From Psammoneis japonica (Eukaryota): a stretch of DNA of 64,000 nt. Both the position numbers and the translations under genes were made by a program. The DNA lies in the NCBI GenBank assembly GCA_008632985.1, contig QPGO01000114.1, positions 124,001-188,000 of the forward strand, given 5' to 3'. Below the pieces are notes generated by a model, which saw only the letters and a program-made list of their open reading frames with translations, made no database searches and was not told the DNA's origin. This document shows positions 9,195-64,000 of the stretch, one piece after another (the first letter of the stretch is position 1; each line of letters opens with the position of its first letter).

Positions 9195-9935
9195 AAATGG
9201 AAAGGAAACGCTTCCAGTCTTGTCCCTCGTGCCACTTAATGTTTGGTGATGAAAGAAACAACTATGGGCTATGGTGCTTGATGAGATGTGCTTGCGTGAA
9301 ATCGTTTCTGTCAGTCGAAGCTCGCGTGTCCGCGCAAGCTCCGAGTGCCTTCCTAACGTATCGCCGACTGGATGTCCACTCCAGATCGATGCCTCAGGCA
9401 GAATGCAAGTAGATAGAATCTACCAACGAGCAGTAACGAGCATTTGGTCTTTCACAAAAGTGCTAGTGACCAAATTATAAGCTACCTAGACTGAATCTGC
9501 TGAATGCACCCAAACAGAGGTTGATCTGCAGGTTTGCACACCAGAGACTGGTGCAAACTTCAGGGTTGACCACATTCACAACAATCGCCCAAATGCTGCT
9601 GAACCAATCCATGGTTGGCTCAACATCCATGCAAAGCCTGTGATCTCCAAAGCACCGCCTATGATCCCCAAAGCATTCGGCTTGAGAATCAAGTCGACGT
9701 GGTGCGAAAAGAGTTTCAACAAGAGCTCCGACTGACGGAAGTGCAGACACGACAGAGAATCTGGGTTGGTGGACAGACGAACCACGACTCTCCCTCTCAT
9801 TCACAGATTCCAGCAACCAACAAGAAAATCGCAAACGAGAAAGCTCACACAATTGGCACAAGTTCAGAGCAAAGCTCCTGCATCTTGACCGAGCCACAAC
9901 ACACAACAAACAAAGGAAGCGATGCTTCCAAAGTG

Positions 9936-11520
9936 CTGCCACCCTTGGACCTTCAACCGGCTGTTCTCGAAGAGCTCTCGAGTCAAAGGCTTGGCAAGAT
10001 GATTGGTGAGTTGCTCGGCTGATTCCACCTTGATCGTGTTGAACTCATCACAGTGCAACCAGAACCAACGCCACTTGACGAGAAAACACTTGGTGCGGCT
10101 GGTGATGCTGCGGTGGTTGGCAGCCAGGTGACAAGCGCCTTGATTGTCTTCGAGCACAAGCGCACGAACCAAAGTCCTGAGATCTTGGGAGATGTCCAGG
10201 GCAAAGACGATCTCAAGGAGCAGGTTCTTCAAAGGCAGGAGAGTCCGAAGAGCACAGGAGGCGGCTTGATGCTCGGCTTTGAGGGTGGAGCAGGAAACAG
10301 CCGACTGGAGCTGCGACGCGTTCCAGGTCCAGGTGGGACCTCGCACTGCTGAACTGTGACATCGATGGTTTTTTGAATCACGTCGTGTGTCGCGCACGTG
10401 GATTTCTGCGTGATTTTTTCGACATTTTGTGTCATTTTACGGTGCACTTGTTGAGCGATCCATCCAACAACTTTTGACATTTTTTGTTGCAGCACGATTC
10501 TACAATGTCTTAAGAATCGCGCAGGGCAGGCGCATTTGCAATGACGTCGAGTGGCAAGAGGCACAATTGTGCCACAAACTTGGCCGTTTGTTTGATGTTG
10601 AAGACAAACATGTCCATCAATTAAATTCTCGCACTGCGGAGCTCGCACGCAGAATTCTGCGGGCCCAATGTCACACGGAGTCCCACCTGGGGCTGGAACG
10701 CGTCCTGCGATTTCCACACCAAAGGGCATCCACTGAGAGTTGTGATGCATCCGGTGCAAGACCTCACAGAACTCGGATCAGAATCCGCTTCGCAGCAACA
10801 GAGACCAGCAAAATCGGCGTCGACCCACAAATCAAGATCCAATGGACCGGCTGGAGACAGCAGCATCCTGTGATCACTTGTCCTCTTCAAGCAGCGGACC
10901 AGAGTCTTGGCTGCTGTGGCGCGCTGCTGTTTTGGGTTGGAGTTGAAGCATGCAACCTGACTGACGGCGAGGGAAATGTCAGGGCGGGTGTTGGTGGACA
11001 GATGCAGGAGCACTCCAATGACGGAGGGACAGCTCCAGTCCTCCTGCATGGGAACTCCATCCGCATCAGTGCCGAGAGCTTGGGGCGCCGCGGGGAGCAA
11101 GTTCGGTTTGCCATCAACCAAGCCGGTGGCTGACAGGATCTTGTCAATCAACCCTTTCTGCATCAACTTGACAGCACCGTCATTTCACCTTTCGAACTTG
11201 ACACCCAAGAACTCGGCGAAACTGCCCTCCTTCGTCAACTCAAATCCTTTGTCGCATGGCTGAAATGTCAGCTGATCAATGGTGGACTCCTGCGCTGCAC
11301 TGATCCCGCAATCTTCGACATGCAGGCAGACCACACAATCATGGCGGAGCAGGAGACATTGGCTGCACTCGCTTTGGATGAAACCCAAGTCCCAGAAGGC
11401 TTGCAGACAATGCTTGCACCACAACTTTGGAGCCGAGTGGAGTCCACAGAGACTCTTGACGAGCTTGAGACAAGCCTCAGGTCCTTTCGTCAAACTGAAA
11501 CCTCGTGGAGTCAGCCCAAG
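9936..11520 (-). mobile_element. Ty1/copia (CoDi-type) pol fragment: RT and RNase H, interrupted by a MITE
   Basis: KSLCGLHSAPKLW (KSLYGL), LHVEDCGI (YVDD), TNTRPDISLAVSQ, VDADFAGL, CPLVWKSQ|LQSAVSCSTLKAEH, EDNQGAC, ending QGW. Confidence 0.9.
10315..10704. mobile_element. 390-bp MITE copy 1, 24-bp TIRs, TSD CTGC
   Basis: TIRs gacgcgttccaggtccaggtggga / tcccacctggggctggaacgcgtc, CTGC on both sides; removal restores WKSQ-LQS of the copia RNase H. Confidence 0.95.
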
Positions 11521-11680
11521 CAACCCGCTGGCCTTTCCATGATGGAGAAGCCATTCTGATGCTGCGCTGGCATCAGATCCGCCAAGTCCTGCGCCTCCGG
11601 ACAGTTTGCGTGCGACGGCCTCAATGGCTCCATCGGCGACAAGCACATCCTGAAGCTCTGGCAGCTCACTGAACTTGTTT
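11521..11680 (-). mobile_element. Short fragment resembling a CRE-like non-LTR retrotransposon RT N-terminal region
   Basis: IEAVARKLSGGAGLGGSDASAASEWLLHHGKAS resembles the SGxAGxxGxD...WLLxxGxAS motif; abuts the copia fragment. Confidence 0.5.
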
Positions 11681-11885
11681 TTTGAACAGAAAATGTTGCC
11701 TTTTCTCTTTGTCAGCAACTTCAGAAGAATGGCTCAGCACATTTCGACCCACAGACATTTGGTTCAGACGCTTGTGAAGCAGGGTGCACAGCAGTGCTGA
11801 CAAAACCCGTGTGTGGTGCAAAACTTTGAATGGGGCTGAAGATTTCGGAAATTGTCTCCAAAAGTCACTCTTCCATGGTGTCTAA
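11680..11885. repeat. Dispersed repeat; inverted copy at about 23527-23736
   Basis: Shared segments such as ttgtcagcaacttcagaagaatg, catttcgacccacagacatt and aaagtcactcttccatggtgtct. Confidence 0.85.
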
Positions 11886-11946
11886 AATGCGCGTGCACTC
11901 CACTCTCCATCGTGAGTCCATGCGTCAGCCGCTCCTCGTGGACTCA

Positions 11947-12160
11947 ACTCTCAGAGAATTCAGACAGACGATGCACCAGGGTTGTGTGCATGCACCGGCC
12001 GGCATTGTGCTCCAGTCATTGTGGGAAGGGTGCTTTTTCTGGTGTGTTTTGTGTGAAAAACTCAAGAGTGTGAAGAGCCCATTTTGAGCCAAATCTGCAA
12101 GAGCACCGGAAATTTGAACACATCATTTTTCGCCACTGTCTGTCTGAATTCTCTGAGAGT
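11947..12160. mobile_element. Nested MITE, 23-bp TIRs
   Basis: actctcagagaattcagacagac ... gtctgtctgaattctctgagagt. Confidence 0.8.
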
Positions 12161-12170
12161 CTAAGACATT

Positions 12171-12475: not shown

Positions 12476-12754
12476 ATGAATGCGTCTACCGGCACGCACC
12501 GCATGAGGTGACCCGGGTGTGCGAAGCGCGCGTGTGTCGGTCGACGCATAGACTCACGATGGAGAGTGTGGTTGTCGCGCGAAATTCGCGCGTTTTGAGC
12601 AAAATGCCCGCAGGTGCAGCGCGCCAATTCTTGGCGTTCGGAATTTTTCTGAAAAAAAAAAGAAGAATCGAAAGCGCACTTCAGCACAGCACAACATGGC
12701 AAGTGCTCGTTCAGTGCGACTGCTGCTCCTGTTGTTTCCATCAACACATCTACA

Positions 12755-13591
12755 ATGCCCGGTGGTCGTAACTCTGTAGGCGGTGGTGGTGCCGAGGTCA
12801 CTGTGAATGCCATTCTCAACCGTGAGAATGCTCATCGCGGCGGCATCAAGGAAGGTCAGACGCTCACGGGTGTCATGGCCGAAACAGCAGCAATTGGCGG
12901 TGACCTCGAAACTTGCATGAAGAATGCTGTCGAGAACGATGAAGACGTCGACAAGTTTCTTCAAGAATGCCGTGATCGTCTCAAGAAGCTTGCGGAACGT
13001 CGGCTTCACGCGCAACGTAACATCGATGCCTTTATGCACGTGGTTCGTCAGGACGTTCTCCACGAAGAATCTGAGAATTTCGAGGAACTGATTGACACCA
13101 AAATGAAGGAACATCACAATGCAAGGAAGGACTCTTGTTCGGATGTCAAGCAAGAAGAAACTTGTCGCGAAATTTGCAGCCGTCTCGGTGAGAAGCAAGC
13201 TGCTGCTCGCAATGGCAACGATGATGACGATGATGACCTTGAGGTGCTGGGTGGCGGAGAGTCGCTTGTGTGTCCCATTGTGGGAACACTCTTTGTTGAT
13301 CCTGTCACGAACAAGGCCTGCAATCACACTTGCTCGCGTGCCGGCATCATGCAAGTCATTTCTCATGGTCTGGCGTGTCCCGTTGCGGGGTGTGCTAACC
13401 AAAAGGTTGCCGTAGATCAGTTGGAAGCCAATCCAGAGATGGTGTTCAAGGTCAAGAGGCAGGAGCGTCGGCAAAAGTTGCAGCTCTTGAACCGTCAGAC
13501 TCAGGAGATTGATGATTCTGATGACGATTCAGATGACGACGATGCGGAGAAGAAGGAGTTACGGGTGATTAAGGTTGAAAAAGGTGTCTAA
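12755..13591 (+). CDS. NSE2: NSE2/MMS21-like SP-RING SUMO E3 ligase (SMC5/6 subunit), Tyr-free and probably mutated
   Basis: SLVCPIVGTLFVDPVTNKACNHTCSRAGI...CPVAGC matches the zf-Nse SP-RING, preceded by a helical region and DDDLEV. No Tyr in 278 aa. Confidence 0.8.
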   Translation: MPGGRNSVGGGGAEVTVNAILNRENAHRGGIKEGQTLTGVMAETAAIGGDLETCMKNAVENDEDVDKFLQECRDRLKKLAERRLHAQRNIDAFMHVVRQDVLHEESENFEELIDTKMKEHHNARKDSCSDVKQEETCREICSRLGEKQAAARNGNDDDDDDLEVLGGGESLVCPIVGTLFVDPVTNKACNHTCSRAGIMQVISHGLACPVAGCANQKVAVDQLEANPEMVFKVKRQERRQKLQLLNRQTQEIDDSDDDSDDDDAEKKELRVIKVEKGV

Positions 13592-14376: not shown

Positions 14377-14658
14377 CATTTTGGTCGGACCAAATTGGAA
14401 AACGTCATTTTGGTCGGGGGAATTTGGCGCGCTTTCGGCGGGAATGTCTTCCGTTGGAAAGCGCGCATGTCGACATGCCGCGCAAATTTCGTAGGAGCTA
14501 CGTCAGAATTGTTTGTGTAGAAATGTGCATGAAAATGAATTTGGTCGAGATTTCGCAAATGTCAATTTGGTCGACCAAATTGATTTGGTCGGTTTGGCAA
14601 TTTGGTCGACAAAAGTGTTTTGGTTCGACCAAAATGCCAATTTGGTCCGACCAAAATG
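14377..14658. mobile_element. MITE-like element with 22-bp inverted repeats and many internal tttggtcg(accaaa) palindromic units
   Basis: cattttggtcggaccaaattgg ... ccaatttggtccgaccaaaatg. Confidence 0.7.
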
Positions 14659-14864
14659 TGGCGAAAATCCGTTTGTGATCGGTGAAAAGGGAGAAAGAAG
14701 TGAGGATCGCTCTTCAAACCACTTCAGCATTTTAGACCAAGCTCGCTGCCCTCGCAACCCCCTCCATTCCCTCCTTTCTCCTCTCCCCTCCCCCCCCTCT
14801 CTTGGAGTCACTGCCCCCCCAAAATCGCTGCCAGACTCCCAGTGGAGAGTGTCGGCAACCAACC

Positions 14865-15930
14865 ATGACTGAAACCAGTGACAACAGCATGATGATTTGC
14901 GGCGTCAACTTGGGTGGTTGGTTGCTCAGTGAGCGCTTCATTGCTCCCCATTTATTTGCACTGACGGATTGTCACTTGGATGGAATTTTTTTTTGGAACA
15001 TCCTGGCACGCAGTGTCGCGACACTGTGCGGATTGCAAGCCTCTGTTGGAAGAGCGCCTCTCGAATGAGGCAGATTGTCCCATTGACGCACATGCGCTCA
15101 TGGGCTCATGGGATCATGGACAGTTTTGATGACAAGATTGCTGCCAAGCGGTGCATGGAGCATGGAAAAGCTCACAGCTGCAGGATTTGCGCACACTGCA
15201 CCAGGCCCCAGAATGGATTTGACAGTTCGGGACAATTTTCAGGAGGAAACAAACCGACCGGAAAGGGATTGTGATTTTCCCGTGATGCGAGACTGCGACA
15301 TGCGTGCCAAGAAAATTGCATGTGACAAGCTCGGGGTGGACACCGCTGTGCATGTTGGCGACTTGTCTGACGTTGCGGTCTGGAATCATCCAGAAGACAA
15401 TGTTCATTTGGGCTCCCCGCATTTTCGGTCATGTGAGTCCGCGTCAGCATTGGGCTTGTGTGTCGAAAACAATGCCGTGATGCATCAGGGTGTTGTTCCA
15501 ACATTGGAGTGAAGCGCATGATTGGTGAATGGAGTGCAGCCTTTGACACACTGGTGGGTGCCCAGTTGGATCGAGTTCATGGAGGGAATTGCGTGAAACA
15601 GCGTGGCTCCATTCTTGAACCGGACCCTGCCACCCAAGCATCAAGACTTTTTAAAGCACTGCGTCCAGGCTCAAATGGTCGCGCGTGAAAATGTGACGGA
15701 CGCTTGGTTTCATTGGAATCTCAAGACCAAGGGCGGTGCCTTTGCGGAGTGGGATTTTTTGTGTGGACTCCACGAGGGATGGATGACGGCTCCAATTTCT
15801 TCTTCCCTGCAAGAAACAGTGCTGGATGCCAAGGACGATCACAGCATTGTGCACGAGTGCCCCAATGCTTCCCCAATGAATCCCAGCAATTGGCGGGGCG
15901 CGGATGTCGATGATGATGTTGTCATGTCAC
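14865..15930 (+). pseudogene. GH5 exo-1,3-beta-glucanase-like pseudogene
   Basis: ICGVNLGGWLLSERFIAPHLFA, MIGEWSAAFD, AQMVARE..AWFHWNLK..GGAFAEWDF; deletions, frameshifts, Tyr positions read His/Arg/Cys. Confidence 0.8.
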
Positions 15931-16419
15931 ACAGAGAGTCCTTGTTGACAAAGAACCACACAAGTGCCAGTTTTGCCCTGGTCCTGGAGACGAGCATCTT
16001 CCAGTCAATCATTTCGACAACAACACGACCCCTGTCACCACTGGTCGAACGCCACTGCCACCACACCATCATCATTGGTCGTTTGGCTCCGTCCCATTGA
16101 TTGTTTTGATCGTTTTGAGTGTCAACCATCACAAACAGGAACGATGCACCGCATTGAGATCCTCCGATGAACACCACTCGCTTGTCGTTCAGAAGAGAAG
16201 TTGCAACTGGAGTGTGCGATTAGAGCCAATGTTGGCCGTCCCTCCCGAAATGAAAGCTGGAATGATGCAACGGCTCATTCAAGATTTGAGAAAAAAAAGC
16301 CACTTCTCCGACAATGCGATGATTGTGTCCTTGGCCAATTGGATTGTCGGCCTTTGTCATCGTCTGTCCCACTCTCCTTGGGGTGATCCAGAAAAAAATT
16401 CCAAAGCCGTGCAATGCCT

Positions 16420-16530
16420 TTGAGGAAGCCAATGCTCCACAAGCACCAGGTGGATGCTGTTTTTGCTGGACACGTTCACAGCATGGAATTGACCACGCAG
16501 TCTTGCACAACCAATCCGATTGCAGCGCTG
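16420..16530 (+). pseudogene. Purple acid phosphatase / metallophosphoesterase C-terminal fragment
   Basis: PMLHKHQVDAVFAGHVHS corresponds to EPxLYKYxVDxVFAGHVHxYER. Confidence 0.6.
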
Positions 16531-19500
16531 TCCACAACACCTCGCACATTTGCAATGCGAGCAAACCCGTCTGTGTGGTGGCCAGTGATCCGTCCGATTG
16601 TGAATCCACACCCCACTTTGAGGACAGCAGGGAATGGACACTTTGGCGCTTGCACAAGTTTGTTCATGCTGCAAGTGCGCTGACGGCTGCACAGGCTCAG
16701 ATGTTCAGGTTGGGCCTGCCATCGAGAGTGATGAGATTGTTGCGATTGAATTTTTTGTGCATTCTGCAACGCGACAAGCAGCTCATCGGGTCACTCTGGC
16801 CAAGCCCAGAAAATGCGATGATTTCAAGGAGGACAGCGACCCAGCCATCCAACAACCGAATGCCGACAACTGAACGATGAACGTGAGTGCGAACACCTCA
16901 TGCCTGCGAAATCAACGCTGTTGCGGCAGTCACCAGTCGGAACAAATGTCGCACCTGGGAACAAAACCAATGGAGTTTTGGACATCAATGCGTCCAGTGC
17001 AAGTTGGGCACAAGTTGCCGCTCTCCGACAAATCTGCAACTCGCTGGGAGGTCCGTCCTGGCTCATGGCAAAGGATGGGTCGGTGCTGACAGCATCGCCA
17101 ACAGCAAAAATGCTTGTGGATGGTGTGGTGTCACTTGCCAGCCTGTGGTCGACCAAATGCTCCCCGATGCGGGATCTGGATCTAACTGCGGCATGATGGC
17201 TCTACGTCTGGCGTTCAACGATTTGCGCATTTCGAGCTCTTGGAACTTCGTTGCAGACAATCGACCTTTCGTCAAATTTGTCAATGGCAAGCTCTGCATT
17301 TTGGAAGAGGTGTTGCCAAGAGCACACACTGTTGCTCTTTCTCCGTGGTCTTCTTCTGCTGCGTCCACATCAGGGCATCTGTCTCGTCATCGCAGTGCCC
17401 ATCACAGCACTCAGGAGCGAAGCAAAAGGGAAAGGGGTTTCACGCGAGGTTGCTCGGTTGGCTGCTCAAGCTGCCGTCAGTGTCTCCTCCTCATCTCAGC
17501 AGAGCATTCTAACGAGACTAAATTGACAGCGCATTGCCTCATCAACCTCACCTCTCCAGGTGGTGGATGATCATGTTGTGCTCACATCATTGCGTGTGGC
17601 ACGGTTTCACAGTCAATCATAAACTGATGCTCTGTTGTTGTTTCCGACAACTCCACGTGTCCAGCCAGTTCTGCAAACTGAATCATGATTCATTCTCAGT
17701 GTGGTGTGCGAGCTCGAATTGTGATGAAAACAGCAAAGATTGCCACCACAACAAAACCGAGTGCAATTTTATGTGCTGCGTCCCACGAGGAATCATCTTC
17801 ATCAGAGCAGTCATTGTGACTTGAATGAGGTGGAACGCAGACACGATCTAAAGCAATCCCCTTCTCTTTTTGTTGCAGTGGCACTGGAGGATTGCTCTCC
17901 TGGCACACAACTTCCACACATTGTGCACGACAATCGTTCACATTGCTTTTTGTGCACTGCCCTCTAACTGCCTGCTGTCTGCCGCACCGCACTGTCTGTC
18001 ATTTGTCGCTCATTTGTCATCCTTCCTTCGGCCGGCTCCTCTTCTTCACATTGGGTGCTTCATCAGTTGATCCACCACGACGGTGACGCAATCCGAGCTG
18101 ATTCGAGAAAGGGTCGCTGCGAATCGATGCATTGACCCGTGATTCCACATCATCCACAAACCTGGCAAACATGGCAACAGGATCACTTGTGGAATTGATC
18201 AAAGCCGCGGCTGTGATGCTTTGAGACATGATGGCATTCACAGTGCCTTTCTCATGTGCGTCACGAATCAGCACGATAAAACGATCAAGCTCACCCCGAC
18301 GCGAAGCCTTGCACTCATCCTCGCTCATCCTTGTGCGATCTGCAGTCGGATGCTCTTCATCCACCTTGCGATGAATTGACATCAATCGCTCGATTGGCAG
18401 TGACACGCCCATGGGAGCTGCAGCTGCGACGATGTTTGATGCTTCGGCATGACGTCGCCTGTGATTGGATCTTTCCATCTCTGTCGCATCCTCGACAAAG
18501 GTGTCGCATGTCGTGAGATGAAGCTGAAATGCACAATCATCTTCCATCATTGCGCCAGTCGGAAACAACCCCTTTTAAGACATTTTAAACACCAAATTTG
18601 GAGTTGGGCCAAAAATTGAACCACCACATTTGGTTTCGTGACTGGCTTTTAAGCCACTCGTGAATCGAAATGAGCTCAAGATTTGGCGGGTGACATCACT
18701 CCCTCCAAGAGGAGGCAGCGAGTTGCAGGTGTTGTTGACATTTTTTTCATGCTTTGCACTCGCTGGCAACTGCATTTCCCTGCAATGCAATGTCTTGCAA
18801 CAATGATGAAAATTTCCTGAGGACTTGTGGAGCTGGCAAGTGTTTCTTTTTTGGTGCATGCCCCATTTCGAGTGGCAACAAGCACTCAGTTGCAACAGTC
18901 GAATTGTTCTCCTGCTCCGCTGCCTTTGCTTTTTTGACATCAGACGCAATTGCAAAGGCTCTTCTCGTCCACAAATTCAATGACAAATCTGACCCAGATC
19001 CTCCGTTTGGAGAGCATTGATTGCGAGCGATGCATGGTGCTGCGTCATTTCTCTGGTTCACGACCGAGATCTCGAACATTGTGCCAATCCGTCGTCTCGA
19101 CTGCTTCTCGGGCGGTCTTGACACCTCAAGCCACAAATCAGACGGGACGCACGCCTTTTAGTGCCGTTTTTAAAAATGAACAAACAGTTGTTTTTTAGCT
19201 CTCTAGAGCATTGCAGGCAGGCAGATCTTTTTGCGCGGGCAACCGACTGTGGAATGCAGAAGATTGTGATGATGGCAAGGTGTTCTTGTGGTTGTGCTTT
19301 GGCTGCAGCTTGCATTGACCAGTCCAAAGAGACAGTGGGGACGTGATCATTTTGACAAAGAGCTGCCACCATTCGTTTTCTTTACCTCCAAACGACCAAA
19401 TCTAATTTTGAAAAGCATGCTCCCAATGAATCAAGTCGCTGGTGACTTTCATCATCTCAAAGCGAAGAACACGATGGAAACCTGCAGAGAAGAGCCAATG

Positions 19501-20218
19501 TGCCAATTCAGCATTTCAAAAAATGTTGAATCATCAAGCATTCCCAAGAAGATGAACCAACGATCACTGCTTGCCACAGACCGACTGGAGTGTTTTGGCG
19601 CGTCGAATTTTTTGGCGCCGTGACTCGGGCGAAGCATCAAAGTGCTCGGCGGAGCATGACTCTTGGTGTTCAGGCTTCACAAACAACTTGGCACTTCCAA
19701 CCAGTTTCTTCTTGGAGTGAAAACATCAATTCCTGGACTTCTTGGCTGGCGGCGGGTGCACAAATGCTTCGCATTCTTCGTTGCTCAAATTTGCTGAAAT
19801 TTGATGATGTTGTTCCTCGAAAGCACGGGGCGAATTGGGGACATCAATGCCACCTGCAAGCATGTCAGCAACGTTTGTCTGTTGTCTGTGCACCCCAACG
19901 GGAGAGGGAGGTGGTGGGAGGGAACAGTCTGCCTCGTCGGGTGACGCAGTTGGACCCGTCATGGCGGAAGCAGTTTTGCCGGAAAAATTGCGCGAAAATG
20001 CCGCATTTTTGACAGGCACTGCTCAACGACTGAAGGTCACACGGAGATGATCGAAGAGTGGAAACACGTGTTTTAGAGTGCGCAGAATTCGTTCATGCAG
20101 TCATTTGGGGCTCAAACCTGATTTTGTCGGACACAATCGCTGAGTCAAAATTTGAAACACCACATGTGGTGTTTAAATTTTTTGAAACACCACACATGGT
20201 GCTTGTTCCCGATTGGCG

Positions 20219-20640
20219 TCAAAGGAAGACGGTCATCACCGCCCTCCTCCTTGTCCCCTCCACTGCCAGACATGATGCCGGCATGGAAAAAAATGATGTC
20301 AGTTGTTGATCAGCGTGCCTTTTTGAGAATGCGTGTGTGTGTGGGGCCTGCTGCAGTGCCTGCCAGCTAGCCAGCCAGTGCACACGCGAATCAATCTACT
20401 CTTCATTCATTGGATGGCGATGAATGGATCCGTCTGTGTCTCCCACCTGACCCACCGGCAAACCCAAACGGACTGGAGGTGTTGCATGTCGTGAGATGAA
20501 GCTGAAACGTGTGATCATCATCCATCATCAAAGGAAGACGGTCATCACCGCCCTCCTCCTCGTCCCCTCCACTGCCAGACATGATGGAAAAAAATGATGT
20601 CAGCATTGTTGATCAGCGCACCTTTTTGAGAATGCGTGCG
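20219..20640. repeat. Direct repeat pair (20219-20380 and 20528-20640; the second copy continues at 22634-22672 after an insertion)
   Basis: tcaaaggaagacggtcatcaccgccctcctcc...gaatgcgtg occurs twice; the continuation gggcctgctgcag...gctagc follows the inserted element. Confidence 0.85.
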
Positions 20641-22633
20641 CATGTCCCCAACCCGTGACTTGAGGGGTCACAAAATGCACCCTCACTTTTCAGTCACGAA
20701 TTAAGATGTCAGAACGATTTGATGCGAAACTTGCCTGAACATGACAAAACAGAAGCTTTCCTTCTAAAACAGGCCATCATCGCAAAATGTGGTCGCCAAA
20801 TGCATTTCGATGCCCTGCAAGCTCGTTAAAGCCAAAGCTTTTTCGTCCAAATTGATCGCCAAAACTGAGCAGGGGACACAATGTGCACTGCACCCTCACG
20901 CAACGCATTTTTCGCGACAATTGTTGCACTGCACATGTGACACTGTTGACATTGTGTGTGTGGCTGGCTGATCCAAAAACAGCAAAAACGACGTTTTCCC
21001 GCGCTGCGAACGCCAACTCACACACCGCAAGAAATCGACCATGACAACATCGACAGGCGGCGCTCGATTGTGGCGCCCACACGCTTCCTGACAATCACAT
21101 CAGCAAAGAATGCATTGCCATTCGCTGCAACAAATGTGCCCATGAAAAGAGAGGTGAGAAAAAGTGGAAGAATGGACAAAACACCGCATTCTGCACCATC
21201 TGCTCGATTTTCGCTGGGGCCCCACTTGTTTCTCATGCTTGTGTTGTGTTTTCGGTTTGTTCTCAACAGATTGACAAGGGCACAACCCATTGTTTCCTGA
21301 AGGTCTCAAAGAATTTGAGTCTGCTGGGTTGCTCTTGTCACCAAGTGTGCCAAGTGAGCACGGGGCTTGGAACTTCGGGCTTGTTTGTCGCGTTGCCGAT
21401 GGAATCAACAATCCACCCAACTCAGCAGGAGCAGCCCGAATCCCTGGAATGGTGAACAGCATCAAGAGGCAGCAGTGGCAGTGGTGACAGGTCCAACCGC
21501 TGCAACTGTGCGACAAGTGGCAGACGCGTTCCAGCCCTGGGTGGGACTCCGTGTGACATTGGGCCCACAGAATTCTGCGTGCGAGCTCCGCAGTGCGAGA
21601 ATTTAATTGATGGACACACTCATCTTCAACATCAAACAAACGGCCAAGTTTGTGGCACAATTGTGCCTCTCACCACTCGACGTCATTGCAGACGTGCCTG
21701 CCCCACGCGATTCTTAAGACATTGTAGAATCGCGCTGCAACAAAAAATGTCAAAAGTTGTTGGACGGATCGCTCAACAAGTGCACCGTAAAATGACACAA
21801 AACATCGAAAAAATCACACAGAAATCTGTGTGCGCGACATGCGACGTGATTCAAAAAACTGTCGATGTCACAGTTCAGCAGTGCGAGGTCCCACCCAGAC
21901 CTGGAGCGCGTGGGCAGCAGCAGCAGCGGCAGCATGCGCAATCGATGGAACTGTTCATTCAGGAATCGGAAGAGTTTTCGGCACATGTTGACAGTGCCAA
22001 CCAGATGCTGGAGTTGGCTCGGCAACAAAGGGAACATGCATGCTTTGCTCTCTAGCATGGTCACTCTTGTTGATGCCGAAAGTGGATGTTGCAACAGATT
22101 TTGAAACACAGTGCACAGCGACACACACAGCTGCTTCTGCTTGCTGCATTTTGCTGAGTGACAAAACATTTGGTGACAATGCAATGTGTGCTGTGACTTT
22201 GCATTTTGCAGCGCATTGCTGCACAACACAATGCATTGCTGCACAACACAAACAGTGTTGTGTGTGGCCATTGACAACTTCGCCAACAATTGCTTTGTGT
22301 GACACAGCACACCCAACAACTGCTGGCTGAGGTGGTTGTTAGTTTCATGTGACCGTTGCAGCAACGCTCATGATCTGTTGCTGAGAATTCTGCCACTTCC
22401 GCATCAAAAAATTTGGCCATGTTGTGATGCAGCATTGTGGCAAGGTTGCAACGTGTTACGGAGACGTTGCAAGGTCAACAGAGGCACTTGTTTGCATGCC
22501 GCCGATGGCTTCATGACTCACCCTCTGAGGGTGCATTTTATGTCCCCGAAGGTGGCGGAATCCGGATTCTGGATTTTTGACAAAAACACCGTCGGGGACA
22601 TTTTGTGACCCCTTGGCGCGGGTTGGGGACATG
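20641..22633. mobile_element. About 2-kb non-autonomous TIR element inserted in the second repeat copy
   Basis: catgtccccaacccg...aggggtcacaaaatg at 20641 is inverted at 22599-22633; the flanks rejoin to match the uninterrupted copy. Confidence 0.8.
21523..21912. mobile_element. 390-bp MITE copy 2 (inverted relative to copy 1), TSD GGCA
   Basis: Colinear reverse-complement match to 10315-10704; GGCA on both sides. Confidence 0.95.
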
Positions 22634-22809
22634 TGCAGGGCCTGCTGCAGCAACTGCTGGCTAGCTGGCTGGCAGAGTCGATCCCAAAATGAGACCCGGC
22701 ACAAATTAACTTTTTCCGCACCCACGCGGTTTCGCGCGATTGCCGCATTTAAACAAAATTTTCAGTTGTGAAGATTGCCAACACAAATGACAAAACTTTT
22801 CCACTCAAA

Positions 22810-23331
22810 TGTGTGAGCCATGTGCAGGGGTTGTGAGTCCCGAAAAACAGGGTTTGGGCCGATTTCTGGTGCAAAACTCACGCAGAAAATTCGCGCAGAA
22901 TGTCTTGTTCGTCGTGCTTTTCCCGTGCTTTGCAAAAAATGGGCCACGACCTCAAGAGGAATCGATTTCAGCCATGACGGTTGACACTTTGCGTGCTTGC
23001 TTTTTGATGACAAACACGACGATGTCCGCCATTCAGAAAAACTCCATTGTTGGAAAATGTTCACTGTGGTTGGACCGCGGTGAAGTGTTGATCGAATTTC
23101 TGAAAAAATGGAATTTTGAAGTGTTCACAAACAGAATCGTGTTGCTTGTGTAAAAGTCATCATGTAAAGTGTCAATGGTTTCAGGGGAAAACGATTCCTT
23201 GAGGCGTCGGTGGAGCAGAGAAGCACGGCAGCAGAAGCACCAGAAAAAAATCGGCCCAAACCCCAATTTTTACAATTTTTTCTGTGCAGAATTTCTGCGT
23301 GATTTTTGTGCCAGTGCACATGGCTTGCACA
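22810..23331. mobile_element. Probable MITE with short TIRs and subterminal inverted motifs
   Basis: tgtgtgagccatgtgca / tgcacatggcttgcaca; gggtttgggccgattt / aaatcggcccaaaccc. Confidence 0.5.
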
Positions 23332-24315
23332 AACAAATGTGTGCTGTTTCGACCGTGACAGTTTTGTCCAATGGCATTGCAAGCCCCAGGACAGACTTTG
23401 GACCTGCAGTTTGGACAGCTGCGAAGAGATCCGTGCCACACGCACAACCGGACGACACATCTGAATGGACCAGGGCAACAGGGTGCAAAAAAGTGACGGA
23501 CAGATGCGTGCATGCTGGGGACGTGTGCAGACACCATGGAAGAGTGACTTTTGGTGACAATTTCCGAAATCTTCGGTCCTGTTCAAAGTTTTGCATCATG
23601 CGTGGGTTTTGTCAGCAGGGCTGTGCACCCTGCTTCACAAGTGTCTAAACTGAATGTCTGTGGGTCGAAATGTGTCAAGCCGAGTCATTCTTCTGAAGCT
23701 GCTGACAAAGAGGAAAGGCAACATTTTCCATTCAAACAACACAACACCAGGAAATGTGTGACCCGGCAAACCCAAACGGGCTGGAGACAGACGAGCATTG
23801 TAAGACGAAGTCAGCAGAGCAGTTGCCGCCCGCAGCCGGCCGACATTTTTTGGGATTGACCACTTTCAAAATGACCAAACTCGCAACCGGTCTTTGTGAC
23901 ACATGGCATGTACGAAATACAACGCAATGACTTTCCCACGGTTCGGGGTCTTGCAACTGCACACACACTGTCATCGGTGACACGCACACACACATCATCC
24001 ACACCCAACACGACACACCAATAAAATTCACACAAGTGGGGTCAGGGCTGGTTTTCTTCGACGTCGAATGTGTATTTTCTTATTAAAGTATATATATATA
24101 TTTAATATATTATCTTTTTTCGAAAACTTGTAAAATATACTGGCATATATATTATATTCCTTTACATCGACGACGCGGCAATTTTTCCATATTCGTGGCC
24201 GGTTAAAAAAGGAAAACGAAAAAAAGAGGGGATTGCAGAAGCTCTCTCAGCTACTCTAGAGCACCTCTACTAGTAGCTAGAGTAGAAGATAGAAACGACG
24301 AGCGACAAGACTACC

Positions 24316-32691: not shown

Positions 32692-33085
32692 GATGTGTCC
32701 CAGGCACAGGTGGGAATCGTCCGTGTGACATTTGGCCCACAGAATTCTGCATGTGAGGAGCTCCACAGCAAAATCACCAGGCAATGAACATGTCATTGAT
32801 TGCCAACAGAAAAAGAGGCAATTTTGCAGATGCAGCACAAACTCATCCATGATTGAAGCACATCATTTCTCACTTGGCTGGGTGCATTCTTCAGGGATTG
32901 AAGAGCACACCTGGCCCCACAAATCTGTCAAATAAAAAGTCTGGGGTTTCATAAAACAGCAAGTCTGGGGCAACTCTGTGGGAGAGCACATGCAGAAATG
33001 TGTGCGCAAAACATGTGATGGATGACAAAAAATGACCATGTCACATGTCAGTGCTGTGAGCTCCCACCTGGGGCTGGAACGAGCC
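32692..33085. mobile_element. MITE copy 3, older, same subfamily as 36662-37061 and inverted relative to it
   Basis: Degenerate TIRs gatgtgtcccaggcacaggtggga / tcccacctggggctggaacgagcc and the shared subterminal gtgacatttggcccacagaattctgc. Confidence 0.8.
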
Positions 33086-54049: not shown

Positions 54050-55850
54050 TAGATTCTGCAGGCGTCCACAGCTGTTTTGTGCTTTTTACATCACAGGTCA
54101 TTTTCGAAAGATTCCTGTTGACATGCACCTCAATTGTTCAGTCTGCACAAGGCAAAGCAAGTGCACGCGAGCGAAATAAATCAAGAAATGATGTCAATTT
54201 GTCACATTTTAGAATGGGGCATTGGAGCAAGTTTGTGGCTTGACCTCTGAGAAGATTTTTTTAGAAAGAAAAGGATCTGGGGCAGTGTCCGCTGCAAGCT
54301 TTGTTGTGAAGAAGTCATCCTCTGTGTCTTTTTGACAAACATTTGACATTGGGAAAAGAGCTGGCCCTTTGCCTGTTGGGGGTTCCATTGGAGATGATGA
54401 CACACGATGTGTCCTTTCGCTGTGGAGAGCTGGGGTTTCAAGCCCCCCCCCCCTTGGTGTGGCGGTGCGAAGTGGCTGGGGGCAACCAACAATCACATCA
54501 GAGTGGCCTTGCAGCTCTCAACCACAGCTCTCAACCGCAGTTCTCAAAGCCTGTTGGGGTCCACCAAAAAGATCTCCAGCATGCTCCAGCTGCAGTTGTT
54601 GGGGTGGCTGGCACAATCAAGCCATGTGAGACAATGGCTGCTGCAGCCATGACTCCTGTCTCTGTCCACTCTCATCAACGCAGACATTCTCTGCCACAAA
54701 TGGCAGCTCTCCTCTCTGTGGCAGCAAACAATGGAAACCAACCATTCTGTGGCAGTCAGCGTCTGGAGCAAATGTGCGCAACTTTGTTGGTCATTTGGGC
54801 TTGATGGTTTCACGCATTTGATGGTCAGATTGGTGCGCGGGGACAACTCCGCAGAAGAGGCACCATGTGGGGACAACTCTGGAAAAGTGAGAAAAAAAAT
54901 GGCATGGTGAACAACTCTTGGCTGCAAAGCAAAGCCACAGCAATTCTTGCAGTGTGCTTTTTTGCTCACCTTTCTCTGCTCCAAATGATTGTCACAAAAG
55001 CTGTGCACTGGTGCTCCCAAAAAACTCAATGTGACCCACAACAAACAACCCCAATCCACACCCTTCTTTGTGAACCTCTGCGTTGTCATTCAAGCATGAC
55101 ACAACCTTGATCTTTCTTGCACTCTGTCAAATTTGCTCTTTGGGGTGTGTGGAAGAGAATGCCAGGGTCAATCATCAAAGCAAAACCCAAAACCCATTTT
55201 TAAGGTGCTGCCACACTTCTGCCCTGCAACTCTGGCAAACACCCCAAGCACACTTAAAGTGTGGCAGGAAAAAGCCAATCATGAACAACAGAAACTGAGC
55301 CCAAATGTGAGAGCACTCGCCTGCATCGGGGTGGGAACAGCGCAAGAACCCCCCAACAAGTGACACATCTTTGTTCAAGCACCATGACGCACCCTTGACA
55401 TTTCCTTGGCTCTGTCTGATTTGCGCTCCAGGGTGTGCAGAAGAGAGCATCAGAGCTTGCAATGTGTGACAGCAGGTGCCCAGCAACACACCAGACAAAG
55501 CAAAATCACAAAACACCACATGATTTGCTCTAAAGAATGAGAGAGAAGCTAAAAGGGGAAAGAGATCAGCTGCAATGAAAAATCTCAGTCACAAAGACAA
55601 GTCGCCAAAGCTGCCATTTCAACAGAGCCACAGCATGTTCTCTTTGACACACCCTGGTTTCTCAAATTTTCTGTGATCTGGGTGCAGTTGCAACACCATC
55701 CTGAAGAGGCAAGTGTCAGTGCCCTTGCTTTTTTGCATCATCTGGAGTTCTTCTCACGTGATTTGATGTCTTTTTCCACCACTCCTTGTGCCCCCTGTGT
55801 GCAAGCATTGTGCCCTGGCAGTGTCGCAAGACTTGGGCACACTGAATTAA
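54050..55850. other. TpA- and CpG-depleted domain 4
   Basis: TA nearly absent; no recognisable protein. Confidence 0.8.
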
Positions 55851-56459
55851 TCTCACGTATTGGGCGGCGCCCCTGACCCCACTTTCACCCCAGATTGTCA
55901 AAATGTGTAAAACACCCCTGTTTTGTAAAACGCCCTAGTAACAAGCAGCGGCTTGGGTCGTCATGGTGCTTTCGACAGTCGAGTCGAGCAGTTTTTGCTG
56001 TTTGCGCATTCAAATCGCGCGCAGTGACAGTGAATCTTCACTTCCGGGTTCCTTCTGGTTTTGTTTCGACATCAAACATGACTGACGACTGACCGACGAA
56101 TGCTCGAAAAAGCCTGCTACGTAGGATCCTACGTAAGATATAGGGTAATGAGCCAAAATGTGTGTTTTACACGACGAAGCACGTGTTTTACAGAATAACA
56201 CGTGGTTTTACGATTCCCCCCCTCCCCCCCCTTTCACCGCGATGGTTGCGCCCAATACGTGTCAGCGCGCCCCTTGCCAGAGCAGGGGCTGTTTCTCTGC
56301 TTGTTTTCCACATTCCACAAGTGTTCTCGAAATGACTGAGTTGAGCTTGTTCGTTCTTGAACGAAATTTCCACAGATTTGCTTTTGACACAATCGAGAAT
56401 CTTGAGCTTGGCATCAGCCTTGTATGTGGAGGTTCCCAAGATTTGCTTTGCTCTGCCAG

Positions 56460-59567: not shown

Positions 59568-60547
59568 CCTTGTGGACCATGTGGTGCCGAAGTAGAGAGT
59601 GGACGACAGCGATCGCTTTCGTCAATTTTTATGTACAGGTTACAATGTTCTCTTTGATCTTTTTGTGATGCGTCGAAGAATCACTCTCTGGTGTTAGTTG
59701 TCAATCAATCACCAATTAGAATACTGTACACGCCTTTTGCTCGACGCGCGTCACGGTTCAGGGTGTACACAAATTTTGTACCACAGTGGCGTAAGTGATT
59801 TTTATCTGACATTCTACATGCGCCTAGTGGCGTAGGCCCAGTACAAAAGCAATAAATTTTTGAAGTTTTGTGACGTAGGTACGGTACGGTACAAAGTCAG
59901 AGCATGTTGTGGCGTACCGGGTAGATTCGACATCAACAAGGCTTCGCGCAACACTCGCAACAACCAAGACAACAGAAAACCGCTCGCAAAATCTCGCTCC
60001 CAATTTACACGTTGCAGCTGATGTGGTGTTGTTCATTCGTCTCACTCGTTTTCATCGTGGAACCTCCTGGTGACACAGGGTGTCTTTCAGGCATGTGCAT
60101 CGGTCTGATTGCCCCCCCCCCCCCTCTTTGGGCAAGAATGGGGTGTGTGGTTTGCTTCTTGAAGACACCAGACCAGCTGCAAGGAGCTTGCAGTGGAGAG
60201 CTGGCAAGCAAAGCACTGGGCTGCACCACAAGGCACTGGCTGATGGGACAGCATTGGGCAAGCACAACCACAAGCATTTTCCTGAGGGCACTCTTGCACT
60301 GTGCTCGAAGAACGAGTGCAAACGAAAGTGGAACAGTGTGCGAAAAGTGGAAATTATGAGATTGAATTTTGCTCTGTGATTTTTGGTTTCTCCGAACGAG
60401 TTCTCAATGGCCCAAAGCTTCTGCACTGCTTCTACAGACAAAAGGCCTTTCGGAGAATGTGTTCGTGACAACAGATTGTCTGGACGCGATTGCCATTGAC
60501 ACGCAAGATGTCAACATCGTCAATCGATCGTATTTGCAATTCTCGAC

Positions 60548-60821
60548 TGACAGAAATTGAAGGCAAATGGCAAGAATTCAAACAATGACTCCTTGCTGCT
60601 GTCTAAATGGCAGATGAGTCTCCGCTCAGAGACCGTTGCAGGAGCCGAGAGACGTGCAAGTCGGCACAATCGGGCCACTGTTGTCATTCTTGTGAGCCTT
60701 GTGGCTCGAAAGCAAACCACATCGCGCGTGAACGCGCGGAACTAAAGCACACAAAACTGTGCACGGCAAACTAAACAGCGCGTGATGCTTCGCGCACCCA
60801 AATCCTGTTCAAATCCTGTCA
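60548..60821 (-). mobile_element. Probable 3' LTR (274 bp) of the copia element
   Basis: On the minus strand a purine-rich tract aactggggag is followed by TGACAGGATT; the matching inverted terminus tgacagaaatt is at 60548. Confidence 0.65.
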
Positions 60822-63800
60822 CTCCCCAGTTTGCTTGAGGAGCCACAGAAACAGATTCGACTTCGGATGGAATGAAGTTCCAGAACATGAGGGGGCGGAG
60901 AAGGTCCCAGATTTGGGAGCAACCCCAATGCTTTCTGAGAATGTCAGCAGGGTTGCGGGAGCCTTCGATGAAGTGGAGCTCAAGGTGGCCAGAGGCAATT
61001 GCCTCACACACGCGGTGGAACGACAGTGCGGTGTGTCGCTTGTGTAACTTGGAGTGCGGGATGGTGGCACTGTCTACAACCGACTTGTTGTCACCGAACA
61101 TGCAACCAACGTTGCGGATCGGGACGCCAAGGTGGCGCAGGGTGATGCGCAGGTTGACAATCTGCTCAACACAAGTCCTTGCGGCAACAAATTCAGACCC
61201 GCAGGTCGCAGTCTCCACGGTGGCTTGTTTCTTAGAGAACCAATCAGCCGGGAATTTGTTGAGGAAGTGGAGCATTCCCATGACAGAGCGTCCGGTGAGC
61301 ATGCAATGGCACAAGTTTGCATCGACGCAGTGGGTGGTGGTGACGAACTTGCCAAGGGGCGGTGGAGCGTCCTTCGGGATCATCTCTTCTGCTTCGCCAT
61401 GCACGGAATGCATCCATTCATGGGCCGGAGCAGGGAGATCCGAACAGTCGGGCTCTTCCGTGCGAACGCGGAGAGCACCGTGTCGCATCTTGGAGAGGCA
61501 CCCACAGACGCGTTTGGCACGGTCCAAGTGGCCTTGACGGGGCGCAGCTCGGAAGCTAGAGAGTGACATGACGGCCGTGGTGATGTCAATTCGACCAAGG
61601 GACACTGCCCATTGGAGTGAACCAACAAGAGACTGAAACTTGTGAATGCCATCGGGTCCCAGCAGTTCGGAAGTGTCCAGTTCGGGGTGGTCACCCTTCT
61701 CCAGAGGTGACAGGGCGTTGGTGGTGGGTTTCTCCCCAAACAGTCGGGCGCAGCTGTCGACCATGCGCTCGATGTACTTGCGCGGAGACAGGCACAAGGT
61801 TCCGTCGGGGTCCCGGGAAAAGTCGCAACCCAGATGGAACTCAATGGGTCCCGCACCCTTGAGCTTGAACTTGCACTTTTCCGTGAGAGTGTCGACGAAA
61901 GATTGAGGGTCCTTCATGGCAATGGCGAGGTCATCCACATGAACGGCAATGCATTCACAGTGGTCGCCGTTCCTGCGCATCCAAATGTCGGGTTCGGCGC
62001 GGCAGGGGAAGAAGCCTTCAGCTTGCAGGCAGTCGGCGAAGCGCTCGTGCCAGCGGAGACCGGAGCTGCGCAGTCCACACAATGCCTTGTGGATGACAAG
62101 GATGTGTCCTTCGAGTTTGCCGAACTCGGGTCCAGCTACAATGTAAAGCTTCTCCTTGGTGGTGGCTTCAAGGCAGGCATTGCCAATGTCGGTGGCCCAT
62201 GTCTCCAACTCGTTGAGTTCGGCCAGGAAAATCATCAGCCGAAGGCCACGGAGGGAGACTGCTCCGGAGCAGACACTGTCGACAGGTGCATCCGTGAGGT
62301 GCCCGTCGGCTGCGAGTCGTGCCTTGTGGCGACCGTCGTGTTTCACGTCGCACACTGGGTGCACTCGGATCTTCTTGTGTCCCGCAGGAGGAGTGGAAGA
62401 CTTGAAGGGCCCGCAGTCATGGAAGACTTCGTATTCGTCGAGTTGGTCCATCTCGAGATCAGTTGCGTCTCCCCACTTGCGATTGCCGTTGCATTCGTCC
62501 AGTGACATGGCGTGTTTGCAGTTTCGAGGAACTTCGCATCCATGCTTGCAGTGAGGTGCAGTGCGGAAGGAGCGAAGCTTGGCTTGGTTGGCCATGCGAA
62601 GTGGCTTCTTTTGGCGCCTCGCGATGGTGCGGAACTGCTTCCAGCCATCCGTGTCGAGGAGTCCGTTCTCTCGTGCATAGATGGCACAGGTGACAGGGTC
62701 GTCCTTGGCGATGATGGCAAGAGGCTCGGACGTGATCTCCCCACTTTCCCATTCAAGCATGATGTTGTAGCTGGAGCCTTTCCAGGTTGGGTCGTGAGGC
62801 TTCAGAGGTCCTTCGTGCGACACGATGCGTCGAAATTTCCAAACAGTGGCATCTTCGTCTTCTTGCTCAATGTGATTCATGATGTCATTGCAGGCAAGGA
62901 CTTCCTCGCATTCGTCATTGTTGACAGAGCAGACGAACTCAGTGAGCTCGGGATTGCCGTTGACTTTCCATTCGTGGTCTTCGACGGCCTTGACGATGCG
63001 AGCTCTGTGGCGTTGTCCGTCCTCTTGTGGCTGCATGAGGAAGGCACGTCCAATGATGTCTTGCGGATCGAAAACTGGCATCTTGGGTGTCCTGATCTCC
63101 CCATCAGGAGAGTCGACGGGGTTGTCGTCATGGCGAGATTTGATGATGGGTTCAGGTGGCTCCCCATCAGGAGGATCAAGACGCAGGTTTCGAACGGCAG
63201 GATCGGGGGTGGCGGAGCGGACGTTGGACCGGCAGAGGATCTTCTGAGTCTCGTCAGATAGAATCTTGAAGGTCATCTGGTGGCCGACATGCTCAGCAAT
63301 GCCAACGAAGCGTCCACGCAACTCACGGGATTCAGACGGCCAATCGGAGTCATCGAGGTGGAAGCACATGGGTTCCCACCAATGAAAGCAAAGCAACGGG
63401 CTGATGTCCGGGGTGGAGCCAGTGAGAGTCTCGAGGGGCGTGCGCCAGTGGAGACGTGGGGACGCTGTGTGGTTGAGCATGAAGCACACGCACATGAGCG
63501 CCAGCAGCCATGCATGGGCGGGCGAACCAAAACGATCCATGACAGTGTTCGCCATGCGCTTCACGGTCTGGTGTCGACGTTCGGCAAAGTTTTGGTGTTG
63601 CTGGTGAGGCTCACTTTGCCAGCTAGAGATGAAGAGGGCGCGCAGGATCCCGAGCACTTTGTTGCTGATCTCAACTTGAGCACGGTTGCCAATGAGTTTG
63701 GATGGGGCACCACGTTCACGGATCTGATCCTCGAGTGTGTTGACAAACTCTTTGTCTGTCTCAGTGCCGCAGACGTCAGTGACGGCAGACTCGGTGCCAA

Positions 63801-64000
63801 CAAACAGTTGGGCGCTGGTGCAACCAGAGTCGACGGCCGGGGTGTCGGCACAAACGGTGTCAGTGGCGACAGGCTCGTTGCGGCGGTGCACATTGAGGGC
63901 GGGGTTGGGTGATTTGTGGGCCTTGCGAAGGTGTGCACCGGCGGGCATGCGGGCGCACTGCGTGGTGCAGTCAAAAGTACGACGGACCGCATCGGCAGGT
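60742..64000 (-). mobile_element. Ty1/copia (CoDi-type) pol: integrase-RT-RNase H, open for over 1000 codons, continues beyond the window
   Basis: QSEPHQQHQNFAERR (integrase), DVKHDGRHKARL, DIGNACLEA, KALCGLRSSG, VHVDDL (RT), VDANL, ETATCGSEF, FGDNKSV, NPADIL (RNase H); integrase precedes RT. Confidence 0.95.

Follow-up and report, generated by a model that had tools for sequence, protein, structure and literature searches.

The closest described counterpart of the pattern reported here is the de novo TpA>TpG/CpA hypermutation that integrated viral DNA undergoes in the rhizarian Bigelowiella natans (Mettrop et al., bioRxiv 10.64898/2026.01.13.699255). In mutation-accumulation lines of this species, 231 of 302 nuclear mutations fell within two integrated viral regions, and 230 of these 231 were A>G or T>C changes, all on TpA according to the authors. 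Mutations of this kind appeared in only a subset of the lines, at about 6e-7 per site per generation. Coding sequences poor in TpA showed enrichment for reverse transcriptase (RT) and DDE domains, and an ADAT2-like protein was the authors' candidate enzyme. In its available text, the preprint makes no mention of diatoms or stramenopiles, and the main text contains no flanking-base analysis. Here we describe a 64,000-bp stretch of the diatom Psammoneis japonica (GenBank assembly GCA_008632985.1, contig QPGO01000114.1, positions 124,001 to 188,000 of the forward strand; hereafter the window) in which sharply bounded blocks containing retroelement and DNA-transposon sequence are almost free of TpA. 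An earlier reading of the same DNA, the original prediction, knew of no such system in diatoms; our literature searches likewise found no report of TpA>TpG/CpA hypermutation for diatoms, but the same mutations are described for B. natans in the 2026 preprint (10.64898/2026.01.13.699255).

In sliding 1-kb windows, the observed/expected ratio (O/E) of TpA was 0.00–0.15 in the blocks and 0.45–0.9 elsewhere, and the O/E of TG and of CA inside the blocks rose to 1.4–2.1. Block edges were set from the positions of the 1374 TA dinucleotides in the window. At every edge normal TA density was regained within tens of bases, and the longest TA-free gaps reached 1637 bp. Pooled counts gave 143 TA in 36,310 bp of blocks compared with 1205 in the 26,890 bp outside (Fisher p = 1.8e-291); slightly shifted bounds gave 156 TA in the blocks and an O/E of 0.07, against 0.63 outside. 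TG had an O/E of 1.60 in the blocks and 1.13 outside, and CA 1.64 and 1.22. Among A-containing dinucleotides, depletion was confined to TA, since AA (1.27 in blocks, 1.11 outside), GA (1.04, 1.09) and AT (0.87, 0.89) showed nothing comparable. The TpA depletion is real in the sequence as given, and tandem repeats account for none of the blocks (Table 1).

The consequences for coding capacity were equally marked. Tyr made up 5 of 3826 residues in six open reading frames (ORFs) of the blocks and 94 of 3445 in ten gene ORFs. TAA and TAG occurred at 1.9 and 1.1 per 1000 trinucleotides in the blocks, compared with 9.4 and 11.0 outside, while TGA went up; because TAA and TAG are nearly gone, long open tyrosine-free frames are abundant in the blocks. 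The original prediction had described five sharply bounded blocks with almost no TpA, separated by genes with normal TpA and Tyr. The near-absence of TpA and the ordinary composition of the genes are both borne out by these counts, whereas edges set from TA positions give six or seven blocks.

Table 1. Positions and properties of the features of the window, counted from its first base.
Feature	Positions	Strand	Composition and content
TA-depleted block	9487..12162		7 TA, O/E 0.046; CpG O/E 0.69; contains MITE copy A and degenerate copia RT fragment
Partly depleted patch	12549..13400		7 TA, O/E 0.14; spans most of Nse2/Mms21-type SP-RING ORF
TA-depleted block	14518..23801		45 TA, O/E 0.078; CpG O/E 0.76; MITE copy B, remainder without identity
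TA-depleted block	29378..43117		57 TA (13 of them in young MITE), O/E 0.063; left part (29.4–34 kb) CpG O/E 0.1–0.2
TA- and CpG-depleted block	45034..49347		9 TA, O/E 0.033; CpG O/E 0.19; no protein domain recognised
TA-depleted block	54262..56118		11 TA, O/E 0.093; CpG O/E 0.36; ends 34 bp before amino-acid-transporter ORF
TA-depleted block	60006..64000		20 TA, O/E 0.104; CpG O/E 0.86; continues past window end
Ty1/copia polyprotein ORF	60742..63999	-	1085 aa, RVT_2, 5 Tyr
Degenerate copia-type RT fragment	10621..11733	-	RVT_2 E 5e-10; 0 Tyr in 371 codons
DDE-type transposase-like ORF	38829..42362	-	1178 codons, one internal TGA, 0 Tyr
Second large ORF of DDE-type element	34668..38770	+	0 Tyr; interrupted by young MITE
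Nse2/Mms21-type SP-RING ORF	12653..13591	+	312 aa, 0 Tyr, zf-Nse E 4e-13
MITE copy A	10315..10704	-	390 bp, 25-nt TIR, TSD CTGC, 4 TA
MITE copy B	21523..21912	+	390 bp, TIR, TSD GGCA, 4 TA; 92% identical to copy A
MITE copy C	32696..33081	-	Diverged sub-family, 2 TA
Young MITE copy	36662..37061	+	13 TA (normal), TSD ATCA; inserted in already depleted ORF
Direct duplicate, negative control	1..777 (+) and 4288-5064		At least 777 bp, 98.3% identical, normal TA; overlaps Aa_trans gene piece (ORF 3913-4350)

The identified content of the blocks comprises two copia pieces, one DDE-type element with two large ORFs, four copies of a miniature inverted-repeat transposable element (MITE) and an Nse2-type ORF. 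Two of the encoded proteins gave the direction of change. The copia polyprotein ORF had 2024 homologous matches, and 30 of the 120 listed (57–69% identity) were used in a mafft alignment; Tyr content was 2.9–5.0% in all 120. At the 27 columns where at least 80% of the aligned homologues have Tyr, the copia ORF has Cys 18 times, His 3, Phe 2 and Tyr 4, and it retains the consensus at 506 of 552 other conserved columns (92%). For the transposase-like ORF of the DDE-type element, 13 of 150 listed relatives were aligned; its 14 conserved Tyr columns read Cys 6, His 6, Phe 2 and Tyr 0, with 133 of 185 other conserved columns retained. Together, the 41 columns give Cys 24, His 9, Phe 4 and Tyr 4, with no change to Arg. 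Every Cys codon at these columns is TGY and every His codon CAY (Y, pyrimidine), so the ancestral codon was TAY and the change was A>G on the coding or the opposite strand. The degenerate copia-type RT fragment was too diverged for this test (75 of 213 conserved columns retained).

The MITE copies recorded the same change outside coding sequence. They are 386–400 bp long, with terminal inverted repeats (TIRs) of 24–25 nt in all four and perfect 4-bp target-site duplications (TSDs) in three of the four; TIRs, TSDs, small size and several copies identify them as MITEs, and precise in silico excision restores the ORF that one of them interrupts. Copies A and B are mismatched at 30 of 389 columns. 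Twenty of these columns form 10 adjacent TG/CA doubles, and the remainder are 7 cases of CG versus TG or CA and 3 other transitions, with no transversions. The paired TG/CA differences follow from independent conversion of a shared TA on either strand. When the 13 TA of the young MITE were aligned to copy C, the latter had CA at 8, TG at 4 and TT at 1. The young MITE is an unmutated reference copy and also a time marker: it has normal TA inside a tyrosine-free ORF, so the process was inactive there after its insertion. Removal of its 400 bp and one copy of ATCA from the second large ORF leaves 1233 codons with a single internal stop, compared with 23 and 26 stops for control joins.

Several claims of the original prediction bear on these results. 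It had reported Tyr>Cys and Tyr>His changes on one coding strand, which both the copia and the DDE-type ORF display, and had proposed a polarised TA>TG/CA change, which the 33 of 41 conserved Tyr columns now Cys or His and the MITE comparison corroborate. Its statement that DNA transposons and MITEs are affected besides retroelements agrees with the MITEs bearing TIRs and TSDs and with the DDE-type ORF. The DNA-level, two-strand process for which it argued is also the best reading of our data, with both strands affected and the copies altered independently. Native composition, in which the elements came from, or evolved towards, a TA-avoiding style, would account for the low TA count itself and for nothing further. 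It has almost no probability given that conserved Tyr became Cys or His, that the same sites are TG in one copy and CA in another, that a sister MITE copy has TA there, and that relatives elsewhere have normal TA and Tyr.

We then analyzed the context of the change. Survival of TA in the blocks relative to genic DNA was 0.50 for TTAA, 0.30 for CTAA/TTAG, 0.10 for GTAA/TTAC, 0.09 for CTAG, 0.02 for GTAC and 0.002 for ATAT. An additive model over the two strands accounts for all ten tetranucleotide classes, the loads by flanking base being A 0.32, G 1.11, C 1.92 and T 2.51. In these survival figures alone, an effect of the 3′ neighbour looks the same as one of the -2 base; at 45 polarised sites the log-likelihood was -30.2 for the 3′ neighbour, -41.7 for the upstream (-2) base and -31.2 for a 50:50 null. 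The flanking base that sets the rate is most likely the 3′ neighbour, in the order T > C > G >> A. Successive TG and CA chose their strand independently in every block, as in normal DNA (z -2.0 to +1.6), and the same run test over the blocks found no strand-coordinated tracts.

These data bear on editing at the RNA level, in which an ADAR-like or ADAT-like enzyme would act on transcripts and the changes would be fixed by reverse transcription. Such editing could explain the sense-strand A>G excess of the copia ORF, with 18 Cys against 3 His. However, the context model expects 21.1 of the 33 Tyr changes on the coding strand, and with 24 observed there and 9 antisense an extra strand bias is unnecessary. 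For copia alone it predicts 13.6 of 21 from flanking bases, which covers most of the bias; with the DDE-type ORF at a Cys:His ratio of 6:6, we set a strand-bias reading of copia aside. ADARs edit also after A, yet AA is not depleted in the blocks. Strand runs are missing, and MITEs with TIRs and TSDs are affected together with the DDE-type ORF; because MITEs move as DNA, their changes are not accounted for by edited RNA intermediates. ADARs do favour U upstream of the edited A (Discussion of 10.64898/2026.01.13.699255), in line with the TpA context, but overall we regard RNA editing as highly unlikely.

A second alternative is error-prone repair synthesis confined to heterochromatin, either by a Pol eta-like polymerase with its WA hotspot (W, A or T) or through another bias of mismatch or patch repair. 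Pol eta is known for a hotspot of A>G at TA, and the original prediction had named such a polymerase as a candidate. The fit is poor, because the WA motif includes AA, whose O/E rises from 1.11 outside to 1.27 in the blocks, while that of AG does not. The loss of TA is nearly complete, close MITE copies differ by no transversion, and the additive per-strand neighbour rule resembles a base-specific enzyme. Repair synthesis is thus a very unlikely source of the pattern.

Decay of CpG adds to the same products in part of the window. Relative to genic expectation, the mass balance of the blocks is TA -1278 and CG -839, against TG +1109 and CA +936. CpG O/E was 0.1–0.43 in 29.4–34 kb, 45–49.3 kb and 54.3–56.1 kb, and CpG was not depleted in 9.5–23.8 kb or 60–64 kb; the original prediction had laid no stress on this second depletion. 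Transposon methylation occurs in diatoms, and the low CpG of three blocks presumably reflects ordinary decay of methylated CpG, an additional process and not the cause of TA loss. The two are separable because several metagenomic relatives of the DDE-type element are CpG-poor (O/E 0.15–0.4) with normal TA, and three blocks are TA-free with near-normal CpG. TA loss was saturated in 9.5–23.8 kb and 60–64 kb while CpG O/E was still 0.7–0.9; since the copia ORF is otherwise little changed, these findings indicate a very high TA-specific rate.

The same comparison addresses spontaneous, non-enzymatic deamination of a modified adenine, such as N6-methyladenine (6mA) at TpA in silenced DNA, by analogy with the decay of 5-methylcytosine (5mC). 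It would give the same two-strand, dinucleotide-specific, self-limiting pattern, and CpG decay co-occurs in three blocks. However, eukaryotic 6mA is known at ApT rather than TpA, and the O/E of AT is not lowered. Saturation of TA beside intact CpG, and in a copia ORF that keeps 92% of its other conserved residues, implies a rate far above that of CpG decay. The B. natans mutations arose some 1000-fold faster than background and were confined to some of the lines (10.64898/2026.01.13.699255). We consider spontaneous deamination very unlikely.

A technical origin must also be weighed. Modified adenines at TpA in heterochromatin could be base-called as G, with the consensus picking TG or CA; strand-specific miscalls of this kind could produce the sharp regional bounds and the random-looking choice between TG and CA at each site. 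A majority consensus of such miscalls should also yield TA and CG, yet TA is nearly absent and CpG is not raised, and a MITE copy inside a block retains its 13 TA. Independent public protein sets hold Tyr-poor relatives with Cys or His at Tyr columns, and the same signature comes from Illumina data of the B. natans mutation-accumulation lines (10.64898/2026.01.13.699255). We judge an artefact very unlikely.

Taken together, we consider it likely that mobile-element DNA of this diatom underwent TpA-specific A:T>G:C hypermutation at the DNA level, with an adenine deaminase as the probable agent, and that CpG decay was superimposed in some blocks. In this mechanism, the A of 5′-TA-3′ would become G on either strand of chromosomal mobile-element DNA, giving TG or CA, and conversion would proceed almost to saturation while adjacent genes are spared. 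Each TpA would change once, with the two strands altered independently and interspersed: either product removes the 5′ T context on the other strand, so CpG would not be created and Tyr>Arg would not arise. The rate would be set by a flanking base, most likely the 3′ neighbour, leaving TTAA as the best survivor. The process would act copy by copy and in episodes, as suggested by the later MITE insertion that stayed unmutated in a depleted block. The most likely chemistry would be that an enzyme deaminates adenine in silenced or foreign DNA and that the resulting hypoxanthine is then read as G in the next round of replication. Tyr codons would thereby turn into Cys or His and TAA and TAG stops would be lost, so that dead ORFs stay open, while TA-containing regulatory and transposase-binding sites would disappear and copies would diverge. 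In three blocks, 5mC deamination would be a second source of TG and CA.

Several observations weigh against this explanation or limit it. The main open risk is a base-calling or assembly artefact on modified DNA. The window contains no deaminase gene. The block and gene counts come from this one 64-kb window. About 20 kb of block sequence has no recognisable mobile-element homology by Pfam or by tblastn of the retrieved element proteins. The Nse2-type ORF, either a host gene or a relic, is affected like the copia, MITE and DDE-type sequences, and confinement to foreign or mobile sequence is only putative. Among metagenomic loci with relatives of the DDE-type protein, the best 80 of 113 were analyzed and none had strong TA depletion (TA O/E 0.35–0.81), which makes the process uncommon in that group. 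The baseline for TA survival was host genic DNA rather than unmutated elements, at the polarised sites the 3′-neighbour model gains only about 1 log unit over the 50:50 null, and some sense-strand excess is possible in copia.

Pfam identified ordinary genes between the blocks, namely an alpha/beta hydrolase, an F-box protein, a full-size ABCG transporter, amino-acid transporters and a MYND-finger protein, together with a 2OG-Fe(II) oxygenase adjoining an SRA domain. The closest named matches of the ABCG piece were from Thalassiosira exigua (63%), Skeletonema menzelii (59%) and Seminavis robusta (53%), and the best match overall reached 71%. Genes were spared up to the block edges, and all ten gene ORFs were unaffected. 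The original prediction had called the process repeat-targeted, which the present data do not show: a 98.3%-identical 777-bp host duplicate and one MITE copy inside a block are both untouched. The two duplicate copies differ by five substitutions, all transversions, with no TA>TG or TA>CA, and since their TA is normal, duplication as such is not shown to be the trigger.

Other features of the inter-block DNA were also recorded. The duplicate is a recent tandem duplication of host sequence, and another Aa_trans gene lies at 56152-57417. A dense TA run at 24081-24155, with TA every 2–5 bases, lies upstream of the ABCG gene about 280 bp beyond the block edge at 23801 and illustrates how abruptly the hypermutation ends. 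At 51603-53518 on the minus strand, a 2OG-Fe(II) oxygenase ORF (AlkB-like, PF13532) is followed immediately downstream, in the same orientation, by a SAD/SRA (methyl-cytosine-binding) ORF, and the two are probably one gene with an intron. This DNA-modification-type fusion lies 2 kb from a hypermutated block and has normal TA and Tyr. Inside the F-box gene, a 57-bp unit occurs twice at 6286-6401 (96% matches), duplicating a 19-residue peptide.

Within the blocks, many long stop-to-stop ORFs were found in several frames, and the majority of the 71 ORFs that reach 150 aa are located there. A Pfam run on 248 ORFs of the window (59 + 150 + 39) gave only RVT_2 (twice) and zf-Nse as matches inside the blocks, with no transposase family among them. 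When 31 retrieved element proteins were searched against the window by tblastn, matches were confined to three already known places. The Nse2-type ORF is still open and retains its zinc ligands, with a Cys in the SP-RING where one relative has Tyr; a search for its parent returned two distant matches and no close one.

The DDE-type element at 34.6-42.4 kb carries its two large ORFs in convergent orientation. The minus-strand ORF belongs to a family of 1517 public proteins (E <= 0.001), whose full-length relatives are 30–36% identical to it. Pfam searches of 12 homologues returned nothing except a PHD finger in one, a PDB profile search with the family gave no credible match, Foldseek with the model of homologue P0243 gave no match at E <= 0.001, and no relative was found in IMG/VR. 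The P0243 model has a mean predicted local distance difference test (pLDDT) score of 70.8. Its residues 612-852 align to the integrases of mouse mammary tumour virus, Rous sarcoma virus and human immunodeficiency virus and to the Mos1, IstA and TnsB transposases (Z 7.0–8.2), and residues 987-1113 align to BAH domains (Z about 6). On this modelled fold, the ORF is a probable DDE-type transposase or integrase. A 171-bp unit repeated 2.3 times (83% matches) occupies 41909-42305, in the Pro/Ser/Ala-rich N-terminal part of the ORF and a low-confidence region of the homologue's model. Neither half of the second large ORF matched a PDB sequence.

Relatives of this protein elsewhere offer a partial parallel. 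Tyr content was below 1% in 11 of the 150 best public relatives, and nine Tyr-poor relatives were aligned. At 12 aligned Tyr columns P0293 reads His 6, Cys 3, Phe 2 and Arg 1; P0350 has His 2 and Cys 1, P0379 Cys 1 and His 1, and P0364 Phe 5 and Cys 3, while the others were uninformative. Other genomes may hold copies altered by a like process, to judge from the nearly tyrosine-free sequences of P0293, P0350 and P0379. Five metagenomic loci (L080, L049, L037, L062 and L027) were marked by CpG decay only, with a CpG O/E of 0.15–0.30 and normal TpA (0.46–0.69).

If reads confirm the pattern, TpA-specific A:T>G:C hypermutation of invading DNA would be known from two lineages, and for the first time from a stramenopile, in which it has reached saturation across both retroelement and DNA-transposon sequence. 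It would widen the phenomenon of one preprint to major marine primary producers and would suggest that it is old or recurrent in the SAR (stramenopiles, alveolates and rhizarians) supergroup. The mechanistic constraints gained, namely a near-absolute 5′ T, a flanking-base rule, independent strands, one change per site and episodic action, would point to a naturally occurring enzyme with adenine-editing activity on DNA. We know of no genome-defence system shown to use adenine editing of DNA. We propose tentatively, as a possibility rather than an expectation, that diatoms carry a natural adenine deaminase that acts on chromosomal double-stranded DNA at 5′-TA-3′, prefers TAT and TAC, avoids TAA, is aimed at silenced mobile DNA and is homologous to the Bigelowiella activity. 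If so, TpA editing would be an ancient SAR-wide genome defence and a natural counterpart of engineered adenine base editors. In practical terms, gene callers will accept the long, open, tyrosine-free ORFs, leading to over-prediction of proteins, and divergence-based dating of affected elements will be inflated.

Compared with known systems, the process resembles fungal repeat-induced point mutation (RIP) of ascomycetes in its dinucleotide-specific transitions on both DNA strands, its sharply bounded mobile-element blocks, the inactivation of coding capacity and the divergence of copies. Its direction is the opposite, as the original prediction had recognised: Tyr columns and dinucleotide counts give TA>TG/CA, whereas RIP turns CpA/TpG into TpA and reduces GC. 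Stop codons arise under RIP, while the diatom process removes TAA and TAG, and RIP is triggered by duplication, whereas the 98%-identical host duplicate at 1-777 and 4288-5064 is unaffected.

APOBEC editing of cDNA and ADAR editing of double-stranded RNA in animals also leave hypermutated element copies fixed as a by-product of defence. These enzymes act on retroelement intermediates, and the C>T/G>A or A>G tracts that they leave are strand-coordinated. In the window, cut-and-paste elements are affected, the strands are interspersed and the 5′ T is near absolute; restriction to retroelements, A>G confined to the sense strand, tracts and editing after A, the marks of ADAR-type editing, were not found. 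CpG decay of methylated transposons is present here too and feeds the same TG/CA pool, but it is unable to remove TpA.

Among enzymes, ADAT2/TadA-type deaminases share the 5′-U/T-A context, as their natural substrate, A34 of tRNA, follows the invariant U33. Their action on chromosomal double-stranded DNA is only putative, and the window has no such gene. Amphioxus ADAT2 is reported to deaminate DNA (PMC10354150), and the available text of PMC12220804 mentions a deaminase only as viral TadA.

Bigelowiella natans is the nearest match. As far as the available preprint text goes, both systems show TpA>TpG/CpA on both strands, clusters depleted of TpA and enriched in CpA and TpG, signs of episodic action, and an association with foreign or mobile sequence with ordinary genes spared (10.64898/2026.01.13.699255). 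They differ in lineage and target, a rhizarian with nucleocytoplasmic large DNA virus (NCLDV) and virophage inserts there and a stramenopile with copia, MITE and DDE-type sequences here. In B. natans depletion is modest (rho TpA 0.45 in the NCLDV region) and the mutations were seen to arise de novo, whereas the diatom window presents the end state only, close to saturation at an O/E of 0.03–0.10, with a neighbour rule derived here. Two defining features of Bigelowiella-type hypermutation are found in the diatom, namely clustered TpA depletion coupled to CpA and TpG enrichment, and A>G or T>C changes at TpA that give TpG or CpA, in 33 of 41 Tyr columns, 12 of the 13 young-MITE TA and 10 TG/CA doubles.

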